Below are positions 419 through 8,586 of a DNA stretch of 64,000 nucleotides, piece by piece. Every line of letters starts with the position of its first letter. Positions within the stretch are counted from its first letter, which is position 1. A program made the translations under genes and the position numbers. Origin of the DNA: Methylocystis sp. (GTDB lineage: Bacteria; Pseudomonadota; Alphaproteobacteria; Rhizobiales; Beijerinckiaceae); the NCBI RefSeq assembly GCF_050181815.1, contig NZ_JBFXCV010000003.1. The stretch is one strand, 5' to 3'. The notes beneath the pieces were generated by a model, which saw nothing but the letters and a program-made list of their open reading frames with translations, was not told the DNA's origin and made no database searches.

Positions 419-1033
419 CTATTTTTGAAGCGCCGCATATGCCTCATTGATTGCGTCATGCAGTTCTTTCCATAGAGGATTGATCCGCACGTCCGGCCCC
501 CAATTGTAGATCGCCTTGGCGACCTCGGCGATCGTCTCATTGATCGGTTCGCTTTCCCCTTCCTCCAATTCGAAAGAGAATAGCTTCGGCGGAGCGCCGG
601 CTGTCCACGCGTCCCAATGTTCGTTCGAATAACTGGAGACGCCGCGCTGCGCGGCGAGCAGTTCCGGCGCATATTTCGCGAAGCGCCGATGCAGCGGCCC
701 GTCTGAAGGTTCCGCGCGAAAAGCGTCGCGCACCGCGAAATAACGCACATGCTGCACTTCATGCGCGAGGCAGCAGCCAAGACGCGCGTCGCTCATATTC
801 GGGTCATAGTAGATTTCAACGCGGCCGTCGGGGAAAGACTGCCCTTCCGAAGTGAAGCTCTGGCCGAGATAGTCGAAAGTCTTCGTCTGCGGGCTGAGGG
901 TCACTTTGCCGGCATCATAGCCGAAATCCCGCGCCAGCGTTTCAAGCGTTTGGCGCTTCTTCAAGAATTGCGGCGAGTCCGAAAGGTCGCCCCAATCCCT
1001 CGGCTCATCTCGCGCTGTCGAACGGCTCTTCAT
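419..1033 (-). CDS. Hypothetical protein with an HExxH zincin-like metallopeptidase motif (~204 aa)
   Basis: 3' part of ORF 419..1576; ATG at 1033 chosen as start. Contains CCLAHEVQH, a downstream VSSYS and NETIAE (possible third Zn ligand). Confidence 0.6.
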   Translation of the reverse strand: MKSRSTARDEPRDWGDLSDSPQFLKKRQTLETLARDFGYDAGKVTLSPQTKTFDYLGQSFTSEGQSFPDGRVEIYYDPNMSDARLGCCLAHEVQHVRYFAVRDAFRAEPSDGPLHRRFAKYAPELLAAQRGVSSYSNEHWDAWTAGAPPKLFSFELEEGESEPINETIAEVAKAIYNWGPDVRINPLWKELHDAINEAYAALQK

Positions 1034-1481
1034 GCGTAATGACCCAATCGAACTCCGGATGAGCGTCGGCGACATGCTCCCACCATCGCCGCCCGTCCGG
1101 CAAGCGCGGCGAGAGATCATTGACCCTGAGCCGGCGGAAAACATCCGGCCACGCCTTCGCCCCGGCGATGACCGCTTCGACCATGGCGCGCCCCAGGCCG
1201 GGCTGCAGCGAGTTGATCTGCTCGAATACGAGAGAGGGCGGCTCATAGGCGCCGGCGAGCAGAAGCGCGATTCCCGACGCCTGCGTTCCGTCGGGCGTGG
1301 TGATGAGTTTCGGCGAGGTCGAGGCTTTGATTTCGAAAAAGCTGCGCCCGTAGGACCGCGAATCGACGTAAAGGCCAAGCGAAGCGAGATTGCCGGCGAT
1401 CGCTTCGGCGATCGCCTGCATCGCCGGATCGGCGGGTTGGGCCGGCGCTTTCTTGAACCGCCAAGCTTCCCAGAACGCCAT
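1005..1481 (-). CDS. Hypothetical protein (~158 aa), possible GNAT-like fold
   Basis: 3' part of ORF 1005..1835 from ATG 1481 (MAFWEAW), preceded by GGGAG. Normal amino-acid composition; QPGLGRAMV resembles an acetyl-CoA-binding motif A. Overlaps the next gene by 29 nt. Confidence 0.55.
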   Translation of the reverse strand: MAFWEAWRFKKAPAQPADPAMQAIAEAIAGNLASLGLYVDSRSYGRSFFEIKASTSPKLITTPDGTQASGIALLLAGAYEPPSLVFEQINSLQPGLGRAMVEAVIAGAKAWPDVFRRLRVNDLSPRLPDGRRWWEHVADAHPEFDWVITHEEPFDSAR

Positions 1482-1556: not shown

Positions 1557-2726
1557 ATGGCGACACCGATTCGCAACGCTTTCGACCCAGGCTTCGGCGT
1601 TTATGTCCACTGGCCGTTTTGCTTGTCGAAATGCCCCTATTGCGATTTCAACAGCCACGTCCGGCGCGGCGACGTCGACGAGGACCGATTCGTCGAGGCC
1701 TTCAGCGTCGAGCTCGCGCATCGCGCGGCGCTGACGCGCGGGCGCGAAGTCCGCTCGATTTTCTTTGGCGGCGGCACGCCGTCGCTGATGTCGCCGTCGA
1801 CGGCACAAGCGATTCTTACCCGGATTTCGAGCCATTGGAGCCTTGCCAAGGACTGCGAGATCACGCTCGAAGCCAATCCGACCAGCGTCGAGGCCTCGCG
1901 CTTCAGGGGGTTCAAGGCGGCCGGCGTCAATCGCGTCTCGCTCGGCGTGCAGGCGCTAAACGACATCGATCTTCGCGCGCTCGGGCGCCAACATTCGGTC
2001 GCCGAGGCGCTGATGGCGCTCGATGTCGCCAATTCGGTCTTCGAACGCACATCTTTTGATCTGATCTACGGCCGCTCCGGCCAGACGCCAGCCGGCTGGC
2101 GAAAGGAACTGGAGCTGGCGCTCGCCCGCGCGCCGGAACATGTCTCGCTCTACCAGCTGACGATCGAACCCGACACGATGTTCGAGCGCATGGTCAATAC
2201 CGGCAAGATGGCGCTGCCCGACGCCGAGGTTCAGCGCGCGCTCTGGGACGTGACCCAGGAAGTCACCGCCCGCGCCGGCCTGCCCGCCTACGAAGTCTCC
2301 AATCACGCGCGGCCGGGCGCCGAGTGCCGGCACAATCTGGTCTATTGGCGCTATGGCGAATATGTCGGCGTCGGCCCCGGCGCCCATGGGCGGGTGGTCA
2401 CCCCGCGCGGACGGCGCGCTCAGGCCGCCGAGCGGCATCCCGAAATGTGGCTTACCTGCGTCGAGACCGAAGGCCACGGCCTCATCGAGGACGAGCTGCT
2501 CTCGACCGAGCAGGAAGGCGACGAATTCCTGCTGATGGGGCTGCGGCTGCGCGAGGGCGTCGATCCGCAGCGCTATTTCCTCTTGACCGGCAAGCGCCTG
2601 TCGCAATCACGCATCAGCGAACTCATCGGCGACGGGCTCGTCGAATTCACCCGCGAGAACCGGCTGCGCGTCAGCTCGGAAGGCTTCCCGGTGCTCGACG
2701 CGGTGGTCGCCGATCTCGCGGCGTAG
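1557..2726 (+). CDS. hemW: Radical SAM heme chaperone HemW
   Basis: YVHWPFCLSKCPYCDF (CxxxCxxC), GGGTPS, EANP and the HNLVYW signature. Confidence 0.93.
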   Translation: MATPIRNAFDPGFGVYVHWPFCLSKCPYCDFNSHVRRGDVDEDRFVEAFSVELAHRAALTRGREVRSIFFGGGTPSLMSPSTAQAILTRISSHWSLAKDCEITLEANPTSVEASRFRGFKAAGVNRVSLGVQALNDIDLRALGRQHSVAEALMALDVANSVFERTSFDLIYGRSGQTPAGWRKELELALARAPEHVSLYQLTIEPDTMFERMVNTGKMALPDAEVQRALWDVTQEVTARAGLPAYEVSNHARPGAECRHNLVYWRYGEYVGVGPGAHGRVVTPRGRRAQAAERHPEMWLTCVETEGHGLIEDELLSTEQEGDEFLLMGLRLREGVDPQRYFLLTGKRLSQSRISELIGDGLVEFTRENRLRVSSEGFPVLDAVVADLAA

Positions 2727-2807
2727 GCCGCTGCAGAGATTGACGATCAGAAGCCGCGACCGGCGCCGCCGCGAGGAGACGGCGCCAGCTGAGCGTTCAA
2801 GCGGAAC

Positions 2808-3581
2808 TTAGCGCTGGTACAATTTCTCCAGCGTGTCGGCGCCGAGGAGTTCGCCCATGCGGCCAAGGATCAGCAGCGCGACTCCGAATGTCGCCAGCGA
2901 CATCCAGCCGAAAAAGACGAAGCCCCAATGAAGCGGGCCGGCAAAGCCTTCGTCCATCGACCAGAACGTATGGCCCCATTCATTGAATCCCACATTCGGG
3001 ATGGTCATGAAGACGCCGACGACAAGCACCACGAAGGCAAGCGAATAGCCCTTGGCGAAAATCGGCAGGCGTGTCTTGGCATAGAGGAACGCGCCGAGCC
3101 CGATGATCGCGAAGAGCGGATAAGAAATATAGAAGGTGATGATATTGCTCGGCGTGAAATCCGTGTCGCGCACGGCGGTCATGTGCCAGACCGCCGTCTG
3201 CTCCGTAAAGAAGCTTAAGCCCCAATAGAGGGCGAGTGAAAAAACCACCAGCCACTGAACCAGATAAATCAGCCGGCGCATTTCGGTTGAGGCGGCGAGG
3301 CTCGCCAGATCGCGGTCGCGCGTGCGCCACAAAAAGCCGACGACGCCGACCGCGCCCAAGCATGACGCGAGAATCGCGAATTGCAGCAGGCTCATCCAAT
3401 AGAACTGGTATTCCGGCGAGAATGAATCGAGGCCGACGCTCCAGGCGAAAATTTGTTCATAGAGGCGGAGGATGGCCACGAAGAGCGTCAACGCCGCAAC
3501 CCCGATGAGAAGGGGCTTCATATCTAGAATTCGTTCGGCGCCCACGGCGGCGGAACGGACTTCAGCTTTTGTCGTGCTCAT
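2808..3581 (-). CDS. pmoC: Stand-alone particulate methane/ammonia monooxygenase subunit C paralog with a degenerate CuC site
   Basis: GLDSFSPEY, FTEQ..WH..VRDTDFTPS, YAKTRLP and PNVGFNEWGHTFW..PLHWGFV are diagnostic PmoC/AmoC blocks. GGAG ribosome-binding site precedes ATG 3581. No pmoA or pmoB is adjacent. Confidence 0.92.
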   Translation of the reverse strand: MSTTKAEVRSAAVGAERILDMKPLLIGVAALTLFVAILRLYEQIFAWSVGLDSFSPEYQFYWMSLLQFAILASCLGAVGVVGFLWRTRDRDLASLAASTEMRRLIYLVQWLVVFSLALYWGLSFFTEQTAVWHMTAVRDTDFTPSNIITFYISYPLFAIIGLGAFLYAKTRLPIFAKGYSLAFVVLVVGVFMTIPNVGFNEWGHTFWSMDEGFAGPLHWGFVFFGWMSLATFGVALLILGRMGELLGADTLEKLYQR

Positions 3582-3778
3582 GATTGTCTCCAAAGGTGTG
3601 GCTGTCGGGGGCTTTGGCGCCCTCCTCAAAGGTCTGATGCGCGCGAGATCGAAAGCTGCATCGATGGCGGCGGCCGACTGGGCGGAAAGGTTTGACGACT
3701 TTCTCGCGCGCGCATCTTTCGTCCGCATCGCCGTCGAAGTGGCGGCGGAAGCGCACAGAATCATCCGCGAGAAAAACC

Positions 3779-4168
3779 TCAGCCTCGCTGAGGAGGAGCC
3801 CTTGGAGACTGGGGCGCGCGACTTGGTTCGATCCGCGACGCAGGAGCGAACGTCTTCAGCCGAGGCGATTCGGCTTCGGAAGGGAAAGCAACGGCGTTTG
3901 AAACGACGGGTCTTAACGGCGGCGCAGCCAACGCGCCGTCATGCAGGATGCAGCAGAACCCCTGGCAATGACGGTTGTGGTGGGGGACAAGCGGCGTCGC
4001 GCCGCCGGTCACATCGACTTGCGGCGCGCAAACTGCGCTGAAGGCGACGCCATCTCCATGCGCCGCGACTTGCGTCGCCGCGATCGTCGTCTGCATGAGA
4101 AACATGCAGGCGACGATCGCCGCGAACAAGCGCGCGCGCAGACAGATGCGCTGAAAGATTGGAGCCAC
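3779..4168 (-). CDS. DUF2946/CutF/CruR-like exported leader protein with a Cys/His motif and C-terminal RAPP arrest motif
   Basis: GTG start after GAGG. Signal-peptide-like N-terminus, HHNRHCQGFCCILH, and a Pro-rich tail ending PQSPRAPPQRG (RAPP codons 3791-3802). Confidence 0.75.
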   Translation of the reverse strand: MAPIFQRICLRARLFAAIVACMFLMQTTIAATQVAAHGDGVAFSAVCAPQVDVTGGATPLVPHHNRHCQGFCCILHDGALAAPPLRPVVSNAVAFPSEAESPRLKTFAPASRIEPSRAPQSPRAPPQRG

Positions 4169-4626
4169 CGCCGCCTCTGGGTTCCAAAGCCAATGTTAGG
4201 TTTCGATCTCTTGCGCGGTCAAGCAAACCGTTGATGCGACGCCGTGCGACGAAACGACGCTTTAAAAATTGATGCGCGACAAGAAGAAAAGCGACGCGCC
4301 TGTTTTCACATTCGGTTTCGAATTTCGCCCATGACCTGATCGCAATTTCGAAAAAAAATTCCGTTCTTCGAATGGACCGACGCGTCGAGGGGCTTCCAAA
4401 GAAAGTTAATCGCTCTCGGCGGCGCGACCTTCGAACGCGTCATCGTCATTCTCGAACAATTTGGAATCGGCTTGCCGAGACGACGCACTGTCACAAATGC
4501 TACTCTTCGCCGACGAAATGGGATGGCGACGCAGAATGCCCCTGACGGCCGGTTGGAGCTTGGAAGCGATAGGATACTGACCATGCGCCATGATCGACGC
4601 GCGGCGCGGCGTTTGAGTTGAAACCC

Positions 4627-7476
<2,850 letters not shown>

Positions 7477-7503: not shown

Positions 7504-8586
7504 TCACCCAGCCTGCCCACGATGGCGCAAAAAATGATCCGCGAGCACGCAAGCCATCATCGCTTCGCCGACCGGAACCGCGCGAATGCCGACGCAAGGA
7601 TCGTGACGGCCTTTTGTCACGATCTCGGTCTCCTTGCCGAAGCGATCGATCGTGCGGCGCGGCGTCAGAATCGACGACGTGGGTTTCACCGCGAAACGCA
7701 CGACCACCGGCTGGCCGGTCGAAATGCCGCCGAGCACGCCGCCGGCGTTGTTCGACAGAAACGTCGGTCCATCTTTTCCGGCGCGCATTTCGTCGGCGTT
7801 TTCTTCGCCGGTGAGCGCGGCGGCGCCAAAGCCCGCGCCGATCTCGACGCCCTTCACGGCATTGATCGACATCATCGCCGCGGCGAGATCGGCGTCGAGC
7901 TTGCCGTAGACCGGCGCGCCCCAGCCGACCGGCACGCCCTCCGCGACGATTTCGATCACCGCGCCGATCGAGGAGCCGTCCTTGCGCACGTCATCGAGAT
8001 AATCCGCCCATAATTGCGCCGTGCGCGCGTCGGGGCAAAACAGCGGATTGCGTTCAACCTCCGCCCAGTCGAAATGCGCGCGGTCGATTTGGTGCGGACC
8101 GACTTGCACCAGCGCGCCACGAATCGTCACGCCGGCGATTACCTTTCGCGCGACGGCGCCGGCGGCGACCCGCGCCGCGGTTTCACGCGCCGAGGAACGG
8201 CCGCCGCCGCGATGATCGCGCACGCCATATTTCGCGTCGTAGACATAGTCGGCGTGGCCGGGACGATATTTGTCGGCGATCTCGCCATAGTCTTTCGAGC
8301 GCTGGTCGGTATTTTCGATCATGAGCGCGATCGGCGTTCCGGTCGTCACCTGTCGGCCGTCGCCGTCGGCGAAAACGCCGGAAAGAATCTTGACCTCATC
8401 CGCTTCCCGCCGCTGCGTGGTGAAGCGCGACTGTCCCGGCTTGCGCTTGTCGAGAAAGACCTGGATGTCCTTCGCCTCGAGCGGAATTTTCGGCGGACAG
8501 CCGTCGACGATCGCGCCGAGCGCCGGCCCATGGCTCTCGCCGAAGGTGGTGACGCGGAAAAGATGGCCGAAACTATTGTGGGACAT
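7504..8586 (-). CDS. aroC: Chorismate synthase
   Basis: [22 protein letters not shown] and RHDPCV motifs. Confidence 0.97.

Follow-up and report, generated by a model that had tools for sequence, protein, structure and literature searches.

For decades, orphan pmoC genes have been recorded in the genomes of methanotrophs, and the copper control of methane oxidation has been discussed so far mainly at the level of transcription. The locus described here, found in a 64,000-nt stretch of Methylocystis sp. (NCBI RefSeq assembly GCF_050181815.1, contig NZ_JBFXCV010000003.1; hereafter ‘the window’), raises the question of whether one such gene, encoding a paralogue of a particulate methane monooxygenase (pMMO) subunit, is governed by a small peptide encoded directly ahead of it. 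The first-pass annotation had pointed to a 129-aa open reading frame (ORF) co-oriented with, and 197 nt upstream of, a lone pmoC, and these coordinates proved right: both genes lie on the minus strand, the ORF at 4168..3779 (GTG start after AGAGGCGGCG, TGA stop at 3781..3779) and the orphan pmoC paralogue (257 aa) at 3581..2808, with the spacer from leader stop to pmoC start at 3582-3778. The downstream product is assigned to PmoC by PF04896 (E 1e-92, 310 bits) and by a full-length match to TIGR03078 (289 bits, above the cut-off of 280.6), and the 64-kb window contains no other AmoC match. On balance, we consider it likely that the small ORF encodes a ribosome-arrest leader which acts in cis, senses a metal (most likely copper) and sets the output of the orphan pmoC.

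The leader peptide and its family

Twelve homologues of the leader were drawn from a set of 5.8 billion proteins and complemented with further loci (eleven from genomes, four from metagenomes and several by contig look-up), which after removal of duplicates left 17 distinct leader-spacer-pmoC sequences belonging to the window’s subclade, the window included; the survey comprised one pattern scan each of genome contigs and of metagenomes, besides 12 look-ups of contigs. In addition, a profile built from 13 homologues was searched against 1.84 billion representatives and recovered 70 proteins at E<=1e-3 (26 at E<=1e-10), 57 of which were aligned as relatives (22-42% identical to the window’s ORF).

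The signal-like N-terminus, the Cys/His cluster and the PQSPRAPPQRG tail that had been claimed for the ORF are each present in it. Residues 1-36 (4061..4168) resemble a signal peptide, with three arginines, a 12-residue hydrophobic core and an AxA-like end; a heuristic reading gives an export signal composed of R7/R11/R13, the core LFAAIVACMFLM (residues 14-25, mean Kyte-Doolittle hydropathy 2.8) and then IAATQVAAHG. An N-terminal export signal is found in over 95% of the DUF2946 family (PMC9426467). It is followed by Cys47 (4028..4030), which is invariant in the 57 relatives and, judged by its position without an alignment, may be the counterpart of the semi-conserved DUF2946 cysteine (C51 in CruR, PMC9426467). 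The Cys/His cluster HHNRHCQGFCCILH (residues 63-76, 3941..3982) has the spacing C68-x3-C72-C73 (C68-QGF-C72-C73) and is flanked by H63, H64, H67 and H76, so that its form is CxxxCC or CC, unlike CxxC; among the relatives C72 is invariant, C73 occurs in at least 90% and P62 is nearly invariant. The predicted arrest site, RAPP (residues 123-126, codons AGG GCT CCT CCT), lies at 3791..3802, the position first assigned to it, and is succeeded by QRG and the stop codon (C-terminal end: RIEPSRAPQSPRAPPQRG). By comparison with the toeprint of CruR (PMC12992588), Pro125 is predicted to occupy the P site and Pro126 the A site at arrest. Within the subclade the motif always stands 3 residues before the stop (in two loci as RPPP instead), and 49 residues separate the CC pair from RAPP (49-50 in nearly all of the 70 relatives). 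Since the tail RIEPxxAPQSPRAPPxxG-stop is present in all close homologues, and R-x-P-P is unchanged throughout the 57 relatives, whose identity to the window’s ORF is only 22-42% (the invariant columns being C47, C72, R123, P125 and P126), the leader is not a chance ORF; it is a real gene with a probable regulatory role.

Selection on the peptide was assessed by the ratio of nonsynonymous to synonymous divergence (pN/pS) in 16 of the 17 leaders (L026 was left out on account of a frameshift). The ratio for the whole ORF (0.46) indicates a translated gene under selection, and it falls from 0.62 in the linker to 0.31 in the Cys/His segment and 0.21 over the last 17 codons, reaching its lowest value among the segments (0.06) in SPRAPP, where pS is 0.40, i.e. 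a normal synonymous divergence. The low SPRAPP ratio with a normal pS thus places the peptide under selection, its last residues most of all. This is the pattern of constraint to be expected of an arrest peptide, and would be unusual for a folded protein. It bears on the reading of the ORF as the gene for an accessory protein that is secreted, stable and binds copper (as chaperone or partner to the PmoC paralogue), co-located for joint function and without a regulatory role. The export signal, the conserved Cys/His cluster and the synteny with a copper enzyme subunit would all suit such a protein, but the strongest constraint falls on the last residues before the stop, at a fixed distance from the Cys motif, and the linker is poorly conserved. 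Furthermore, ordinary proteins strongly avoid RAPP/RGPP (PMC12992588), exported CutF is degraded and acts in cis only (PMC9973294), and a spacer of ~200 nt is unusual for a plain operon partner; we regard the accessory role as quite improbable.

The codons that spell the arrest motif are rare in this genome (AGG 3.6%, GCT 6.5% and CCT 10.4% of their codon families), and the window’s subclade writes RAPP as AGG/CGG GCT CCT CCT. They could slow decoding, or serve the pairing of the A-P-P-Q codons with UUGAGGAGGG in the spacer. The CopC-linked relative (L012) uses the common codons CGT GCG CCG CCG, and the MJC1-type leader uses CGC GCG CCC CCT.

The assignment to the DUF2946 type, as proposed in the first-pass annotation, stands by way of the relatives and falls short in the direct comparison. 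The leader itself matches PF11162 over profile positions 4-117 of 117 with 15.9 bits (E 0.023), below the cut-off of 23.7, and a search of NCBIfam returned sub-threshold or irrelevant matches only. Among the close homologues 11 of 13 match PF11162 weakly (best E 4.6e-4), while 44 of the 57 relatives match it, the best at 3.4e-11. The nearest relative outside the pmoC context (40% identical) heads a CopC-CopC locus and another, 34% identical, has a PepSY_TM gene downstream; contexts of this type have been reported for CruR homologues (PMC9426467) and for upstream ORFs with RAPP (PMC12992588). By transitive profile homology we therefore file the leader as a divergent member of the DUF2946/CruR-CutF superfamily, because it has the layout of such leaders (an export signal, a Cys motif at a fixed spacing and RAPP 3 residues before the stop) though it misses the Pfam gathering score. 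It is also the first gene of its unit, with a conserved promoter directly upstream, a spacer of 189-257 nt across the pmoC-linked subclades and the subunit of a copper enzyme downstream.

Linkage and transcription

The upstream partner turned out to be kept by part of the singleton pmoC genes. In all 17 distinct loci with enough downstream DNA (the window included) pmoC starts 189-203 nt past the leader stop, and the pairing recurs in two distant subclades: an MJC1-type locus (L028), with a 131-aa leader (HGLCCILH...QSPRAPP), a spacer of 198 nt and a PmoC 71% identical to that of the window, and an M. bryophila-type locus, with a 130-aa leader (HGLCCILH...PRGPPSLEI) that carries RGPP, a spacer of 257 nt and a PmoC 58% identical. 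The spacers are unrelated in sequence between the subclades, so the arrangement was kept while the RNA sequence drifted. The pairing does not extend to plasmids, since the plasmid collection searched held no homologue of the leader and the plasmid-borne Methylocystis pmoC (~52% identical) has no leader. On the M. rosea plasmid NZ_CP044330.1 (8776-9549, L027), pmoC is instead accompanied by a divergent helix-turn-helix regulator 165 nt upstream, which we view as a different regulatory solution for another clade of orphan pmoC.

Two annotation matters were met in this survey. In L028 the gene caller chose a 201-aa antisense ORF (703-1308, minus strand; no Pfam match) over the leader (907-1302, plus strand), and the leader is unannotated in the MJC1-type assembly because the antisense ORF was called in its place. 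A 194-aa ‘fusion’ homologue (P0010, L026 1501-2085), which after a frameshift continues across the spacer and into pmoC, was not accepted as a genuine variant; it is probably an assembly indel error, because the chorismate synthase gene next to it is broken into two parts as well.

Upstream of the leader, the only sigma-70-like match in 2500-4700 (TTGACC-N18-TAACAT, 4193..4222, minus strand) has hexamers that are kept in 17/17 loci. It lies ~25 nt upstream of the leader GTG, and the Shine-Dalgarno (SD) sequence and start codon of the leader are likewise kept in the 17 loci. A further block about 30-90 nt upstream of the -35 hexamer is also conserved, and TTGTCGCGCATCAA-N-AGCGTCGTTTCGYCGCA (4243..4282, minus strand) is near-invariant in the 17 aligned upstream regions; a transcription factor might use it as an operator and so add a second layer of control to that of the leader. 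The same scan of 2500-4700 found no promoter-like site inside the leader-pmoC spacer. Because a single conserved promoter precedes the leader and no promoter-like site lies in the spacer, the leader and pmoC are likely co-transcribed. The unit would consist of these two genes alone, since a radical-SAM/HemN_C gene (1557-2726, plus strand) converges on the 3' end of pmoC and an AMP-binding/PP-binding/acyltransferase gene (4618-7476, plus strand) diverges from the leader promoter region.

The latter gene (952 aa) is located between the leader promoter and an AroC-like gene (7504-8586, minus strand), and in L026 chorismate synthase stands directly upstream of the leader; because of this difference, the 952-aa gene looks like an insertion in the window’s lineage.

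Across the leader stop, a terminator-like hairpin (CCUCAGC-GAG-GCUGAGG plus a U-run; 3767..3793, minus strand) has a stem of 7 bp. It is stable in the window and in L008 only (-13.1 and -11.3 kcal/mol), as the other loci of the subclade carry an internal mismatch; the UUUU run is invariant in the subclade and absent from L028 and L030. As an intrinsic attenuator of general validity it was rejected, since hairpin and U-run are convincing together only in the window and L008. The same element would be central if the two genes were independent, with the leader transcript ending at the stop-codon hairpin, pmoC served by an unrecognised promoter of its own in the spacer and their synteny a matter of history. 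To the hairpin and its UUUUU (3793-3767) can be added that the singleton pmoC genes of strain SC2 have been called monocistronic (PMC9600857). Yet the hairpin is weak in 15 of the 17 loci and absent from the distant subclades that keep the pairing, the spacer lacks a promoter-like site, and the pairing survives the divergence of PmoC down to 58% identity, so that independence of the two genes is, in our view, very improbable.

From the arrest site to pmoC

The family relationship, the motif layout, the selection on the peptide, the linkage and the conservation of the promoter are supported directly by the sequences compared here; the arrest, copper as its ligand, co-transcription and a Rho or RNA step are what we infer. 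In the model that we favour, transcription would begin at the conserved promoter (4222-4193) and the leader would be translated, its N-terminus being exported co-translationally and the nascent chain thereby drawn to the membrane. RAPP would then halt the ribosome once Pro125 stands in the P site and Pro126 in the A site, at which point the Cys/His cluster, ~50 residues back, would be outside the exit tunnel and at or beyond the membrane. Binding of copper to the cluster, or its lack, would alter the dwell of the ribosome on 3791-3802, and the occupancy of these codons would set whether expression passes the 197-nt spacer into pmoC. RAPP/RGPP arrest is known to be strong and is not relieved by EF-P, and CruR arrests in vitro with proline codons in the P and A sites (PMC12992588). 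By a CruR-type route, the stalled ribosome would shield the C-rich stretch and the polymerase from Rho, and its release would lead to termination in the spacer. As the first-pass annotation had cautioned, the direction of the copper response cannot be read from the sequence; CruR and CutF respond in opposite directions.

How occupancy of the arrest codons might be conveyed to pmoC was explored in the spacer RNA. A search of Rfam with 3400-4400 gave two matches, both below the gathering threshold, to small RNA families of Burkholderia, which we read as chance. Within the subclade, RNAalifold places a helix between the UUGAGGAGGG box (3620..3629, minus strand) and UCCUCCUCAG (3788-3797, the A-P-P-Q codons), with 91% of cells paired in the 17 sequences. 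Duplex energies further outline a GC-rich element (3636..3716, minus strand) whose stem B (3700-3716) can pair with C (3636-3648) or alternatively with A (3766-3774): B:C reaches -13 to -25 kcal/mol in 15 of the 17 sequences (-4.9 and -10.7 in the remaining two), and A:B -5 to -13 kcal/mol, with 88-94% paired and covariation that is not significant. Moreover, the ribosome-binding region of pmoC, UUUGGAGAC (3586..3594, minus strand), is invariant in the 17 loci; its pairing with UCUCCAAGGG (3799-3808, the S-P-R codons) is complete in only 6 of them, the window included.

These pairings invite a translational, CutF-type control, in which the arrested ribosome would hide the C/U-rich codons UCUCCAAGGGCUCCUCCUCAG, the spacer would refold (A:B and not B:C) and pmoC would be translated, whereas codons freed of the ribosome would base-pair either with the UUGAGGAGG box or with the ribosome-binding site of pmoC. 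The cutF-cutO stem-loop offers a precedent (PMC9973294). The S-P-R codons of the window pair with UUUGGAGA, and masking of the arrest footprint raises the unpaired probability of the SD from 0.00 to 0.48, an unmasking seen also in L003 and L006; the A-P-P-Q codons form 10 bp with UUGAGGAGGG in the 91% of cells given above, B finds a partner in A or C in most sequences, and it is the rare RAPP codons that create CUCCUCC. Against this, the anti-SD pairing is complete in 6/17 loci only, masking barely alters the accessibility of the SD in 8 of 11 loci, no helix has significant covariation, the GAGGAGG box and the rare codons are missing in the two distant subclades, and the spacer is far longer than an SD-shielding hairpin requires. 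We therefore take translational control of the CutF type to be unlikely, albeit the most serious of the rivals. Sequestration of the SD as a general mechanism was rejected, being limited to those 6 loci, absent from the distant subclades and devoid of covariation.

The route in which a stalled ribosome would keep Rho at bay draws on composition. The excess of C over G climbs to +10 per 40 nt at the arrest codons and a second time in mid-spacer; C/G ratios span 1.02-1.27 among 11 measured spacers from the window’s subclade and 1.18-1.20 in L028 and L030. The only RNA property common to the three subclades is a long spacer with C>G that starts in the last 60-90 nt of the leader, a feature resembling the published account of the cruR rut region. 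Because only Rho-type control fits all subclades, we have a weak preference for the CruR-type Rho route over CutF-type remodelling of the RNA.

Several observations weigh against a copper-sensing arrest leader, whichever route it may take. The leader misses the gathering score of PF11162, its Cys motif is CxxxCC and not the CxxC of CruR, and the distance to RAPP is 49-50 and not 45 residues. Co-transcription is a matter of inference, and in the window and L008 the hairpin and its U-run could be a plain terminator. The spacer sequences are unrelated between subclades, none of the four candidate spacer pairings survives in the two distant ones, and the excess of C over G is in part a by-product of proline codons. 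Covariation in CCUCCUCAG:UUGAGGAGG, A:B, a local GGGC/GCCC hairpin, the terminator-like hairpin and anti-SD:SD nowhere exceeded the shuffle or slide controls, the 17 sequences being too close to one another.

Finally, some CutF-like proteins sense other metals (PMC9973294), and the leader might accordingly be an arrest peptide of the same class that reports another metal, the redox or thiol state or the load on Sec export in place of copper. His-only clusters of CutF-like proteins are neighbours of Ni/Co genes (PMC9973294), and RAPP peptides also monitor Sec and YidC (PMC12992588). The motif found here, however, is rich in cysteine like the clusters linked to copper, the nearest relatives head CopC and PepSY_TM loci, and the target is the subunit of a copper enzyme, which together make a signal other than copper improbable.

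The target PmoC, its copper sites and known leaders

The target itself differs from a canonical PmoC at one of its copper sites. It is 57% identical to the PmoC of Methylocystis sp. M (3RFR_C), and in the numbering of the Bath enzyme the sites are CuC (Asp156/His160/His173) and CuD (Asn227/His231/His245) (PMC12576850). The CuC positions of the window’s PmoC read T129/H133/N146 as opposed to the canonical D/H/H, so that two of the three ligands are lost, and those of CuD are kept (N200/H204/H218). T129/H133/N146 together with the CuD signature (hereafter THN-NHH) was present in 10/10 leader-adjacent orthologues checked. In an alignment of 122 PmoC sequences (the 120 best homologue clusters, the window and the canonical 3RFR_C) THN-NHH occurs in 93, its carriers including M. 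rosea, M. parvus, M. echinoides, M. bryophila and MJC1, and the canonical D/H/H + N/H/H in 21. The loss of CuC ligands gives a rationale for a control linked to copper, without telling its direction.

Lone pmoC genes outside pmoCAB are typical of Methylocystis, pmoC1Gs and pmoC2Gs of Methylocystis sp. SC2 being examples (PMC9600857). The published singletons are described as monocistronic with no mention of an upstream leader, unlike the present clade, which is further set apart by T129/N146. A 2026 preprint still calls the function of singleton pmoC ‘still unclear’ (bioRxiv 10.1101/2025.08.29.672306).

One close counterpart of the leader is CruR (Bp2923) of Bordetella pertussis, the DUF2946 prototype (PMC9426467), which is likewise small and encoded first in its unit and also has an export signal, a semi-conserved cysteine near the N-terminus, a Cys motif at a fixed spacing and RAPP exactly 3 residues before the stop. 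Both precede the next gene by a long spacer (162 nt in Bordetella, 197 nt here), with a C>G stretch that sets in within the 3' part of the ORF. They differ in the motif and its distance (CxxC and 45 residues in CruR, CxxxCC in a His-rich cluster and 49-50 here) and in the target, which for CruR is a TonB-dependent copper importer and here an inner-membrane pMMO subunit paralogue. With CutF of Rhodobacter capsulatus (PMC8456105, PMC9973294, bioRxiv 10.1101/2025.02.05.636593) the leader shares a Sec signal, CxxxC, a proline-rich arrest tail, action in cis (predicted in our case) on a cuproenzyme gene that comes next and, for some members of the subclade, anti-SD potential. In CutF, on the other hand, the spacer is short and contains a defined stem-loop that shields the SD, and the proline motif is weaker and sensitive to EF-P; here the spacer is long, SD shielding is not conserved and the motif is a true RAPP. 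The arrest peptides ApdA, ApdP and their SecM-like kin (PMC12992588) also end in RAPP/RGPP and are small secretory proteins encoded upstream of a regulated gene, but they monitor Sec or YidC.

The first-pass annotation had held the pairing of such a leader with pmoC to be undescribed, which is borne out for the searchable literature and the supplements of three surveys. No paper in the searchable literature combines DUF2946, CruR or CutF with pmoC or Methylocystis, and Roy 2022, Ozturk 2023 and Fujiwara 2025 have no entry for AmoC, monooxygenase or methane in their text or supplements. In Roy et al. ‘methanotroph’ occurs only within the title of one cited reference; their Table S1 lists, without context, one DUF2946 protein of Methylocystis sp. 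MJC1, which may be the L028 leader. The other targets of RAPP peptides surveyed are TonB, YcnI, PCuAC, PepSY, DsbA and thioredoxin (PMC12992588), and the text of that study together with its 80 supplementary files gave no match to monooxygenase, AmoC, methane or Methylocystis.

Taken together, the locus appears to join a known class of leader to a new class of target, namely a paralogue of a pMMO subunit, and would thus extend the targets of DUF2946 leaders from proteins of copper transport and detoxification to the subunit of a major metabolic enzyme. Such leaders can escape annotation, as illustrated by the assembly in which the antisense ORF was called instead. The presence of the leader ahead of one pmoC clade yields a testable hypothesis, i.e. 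that the subunit is made according to periplasmic copper, and a clade that lacks two CuC ligands and retains CuD bears on the question of which copper site of PmoC is catalytic. More speculatively, and with considerable doubt, we may be looking at a post-transcriptional copper switch on pMMO, in which a nascent-peptide sensor of periplasmic copper would time the production of a CuD-only PmoC isoform and thereby remodel the subunit composition and copper stoichiometry of the enzyme. If this were true, the orphan pmoC would gain a function, and a natural CuC-less enzyme would become available to test which copper site oxidises methane.

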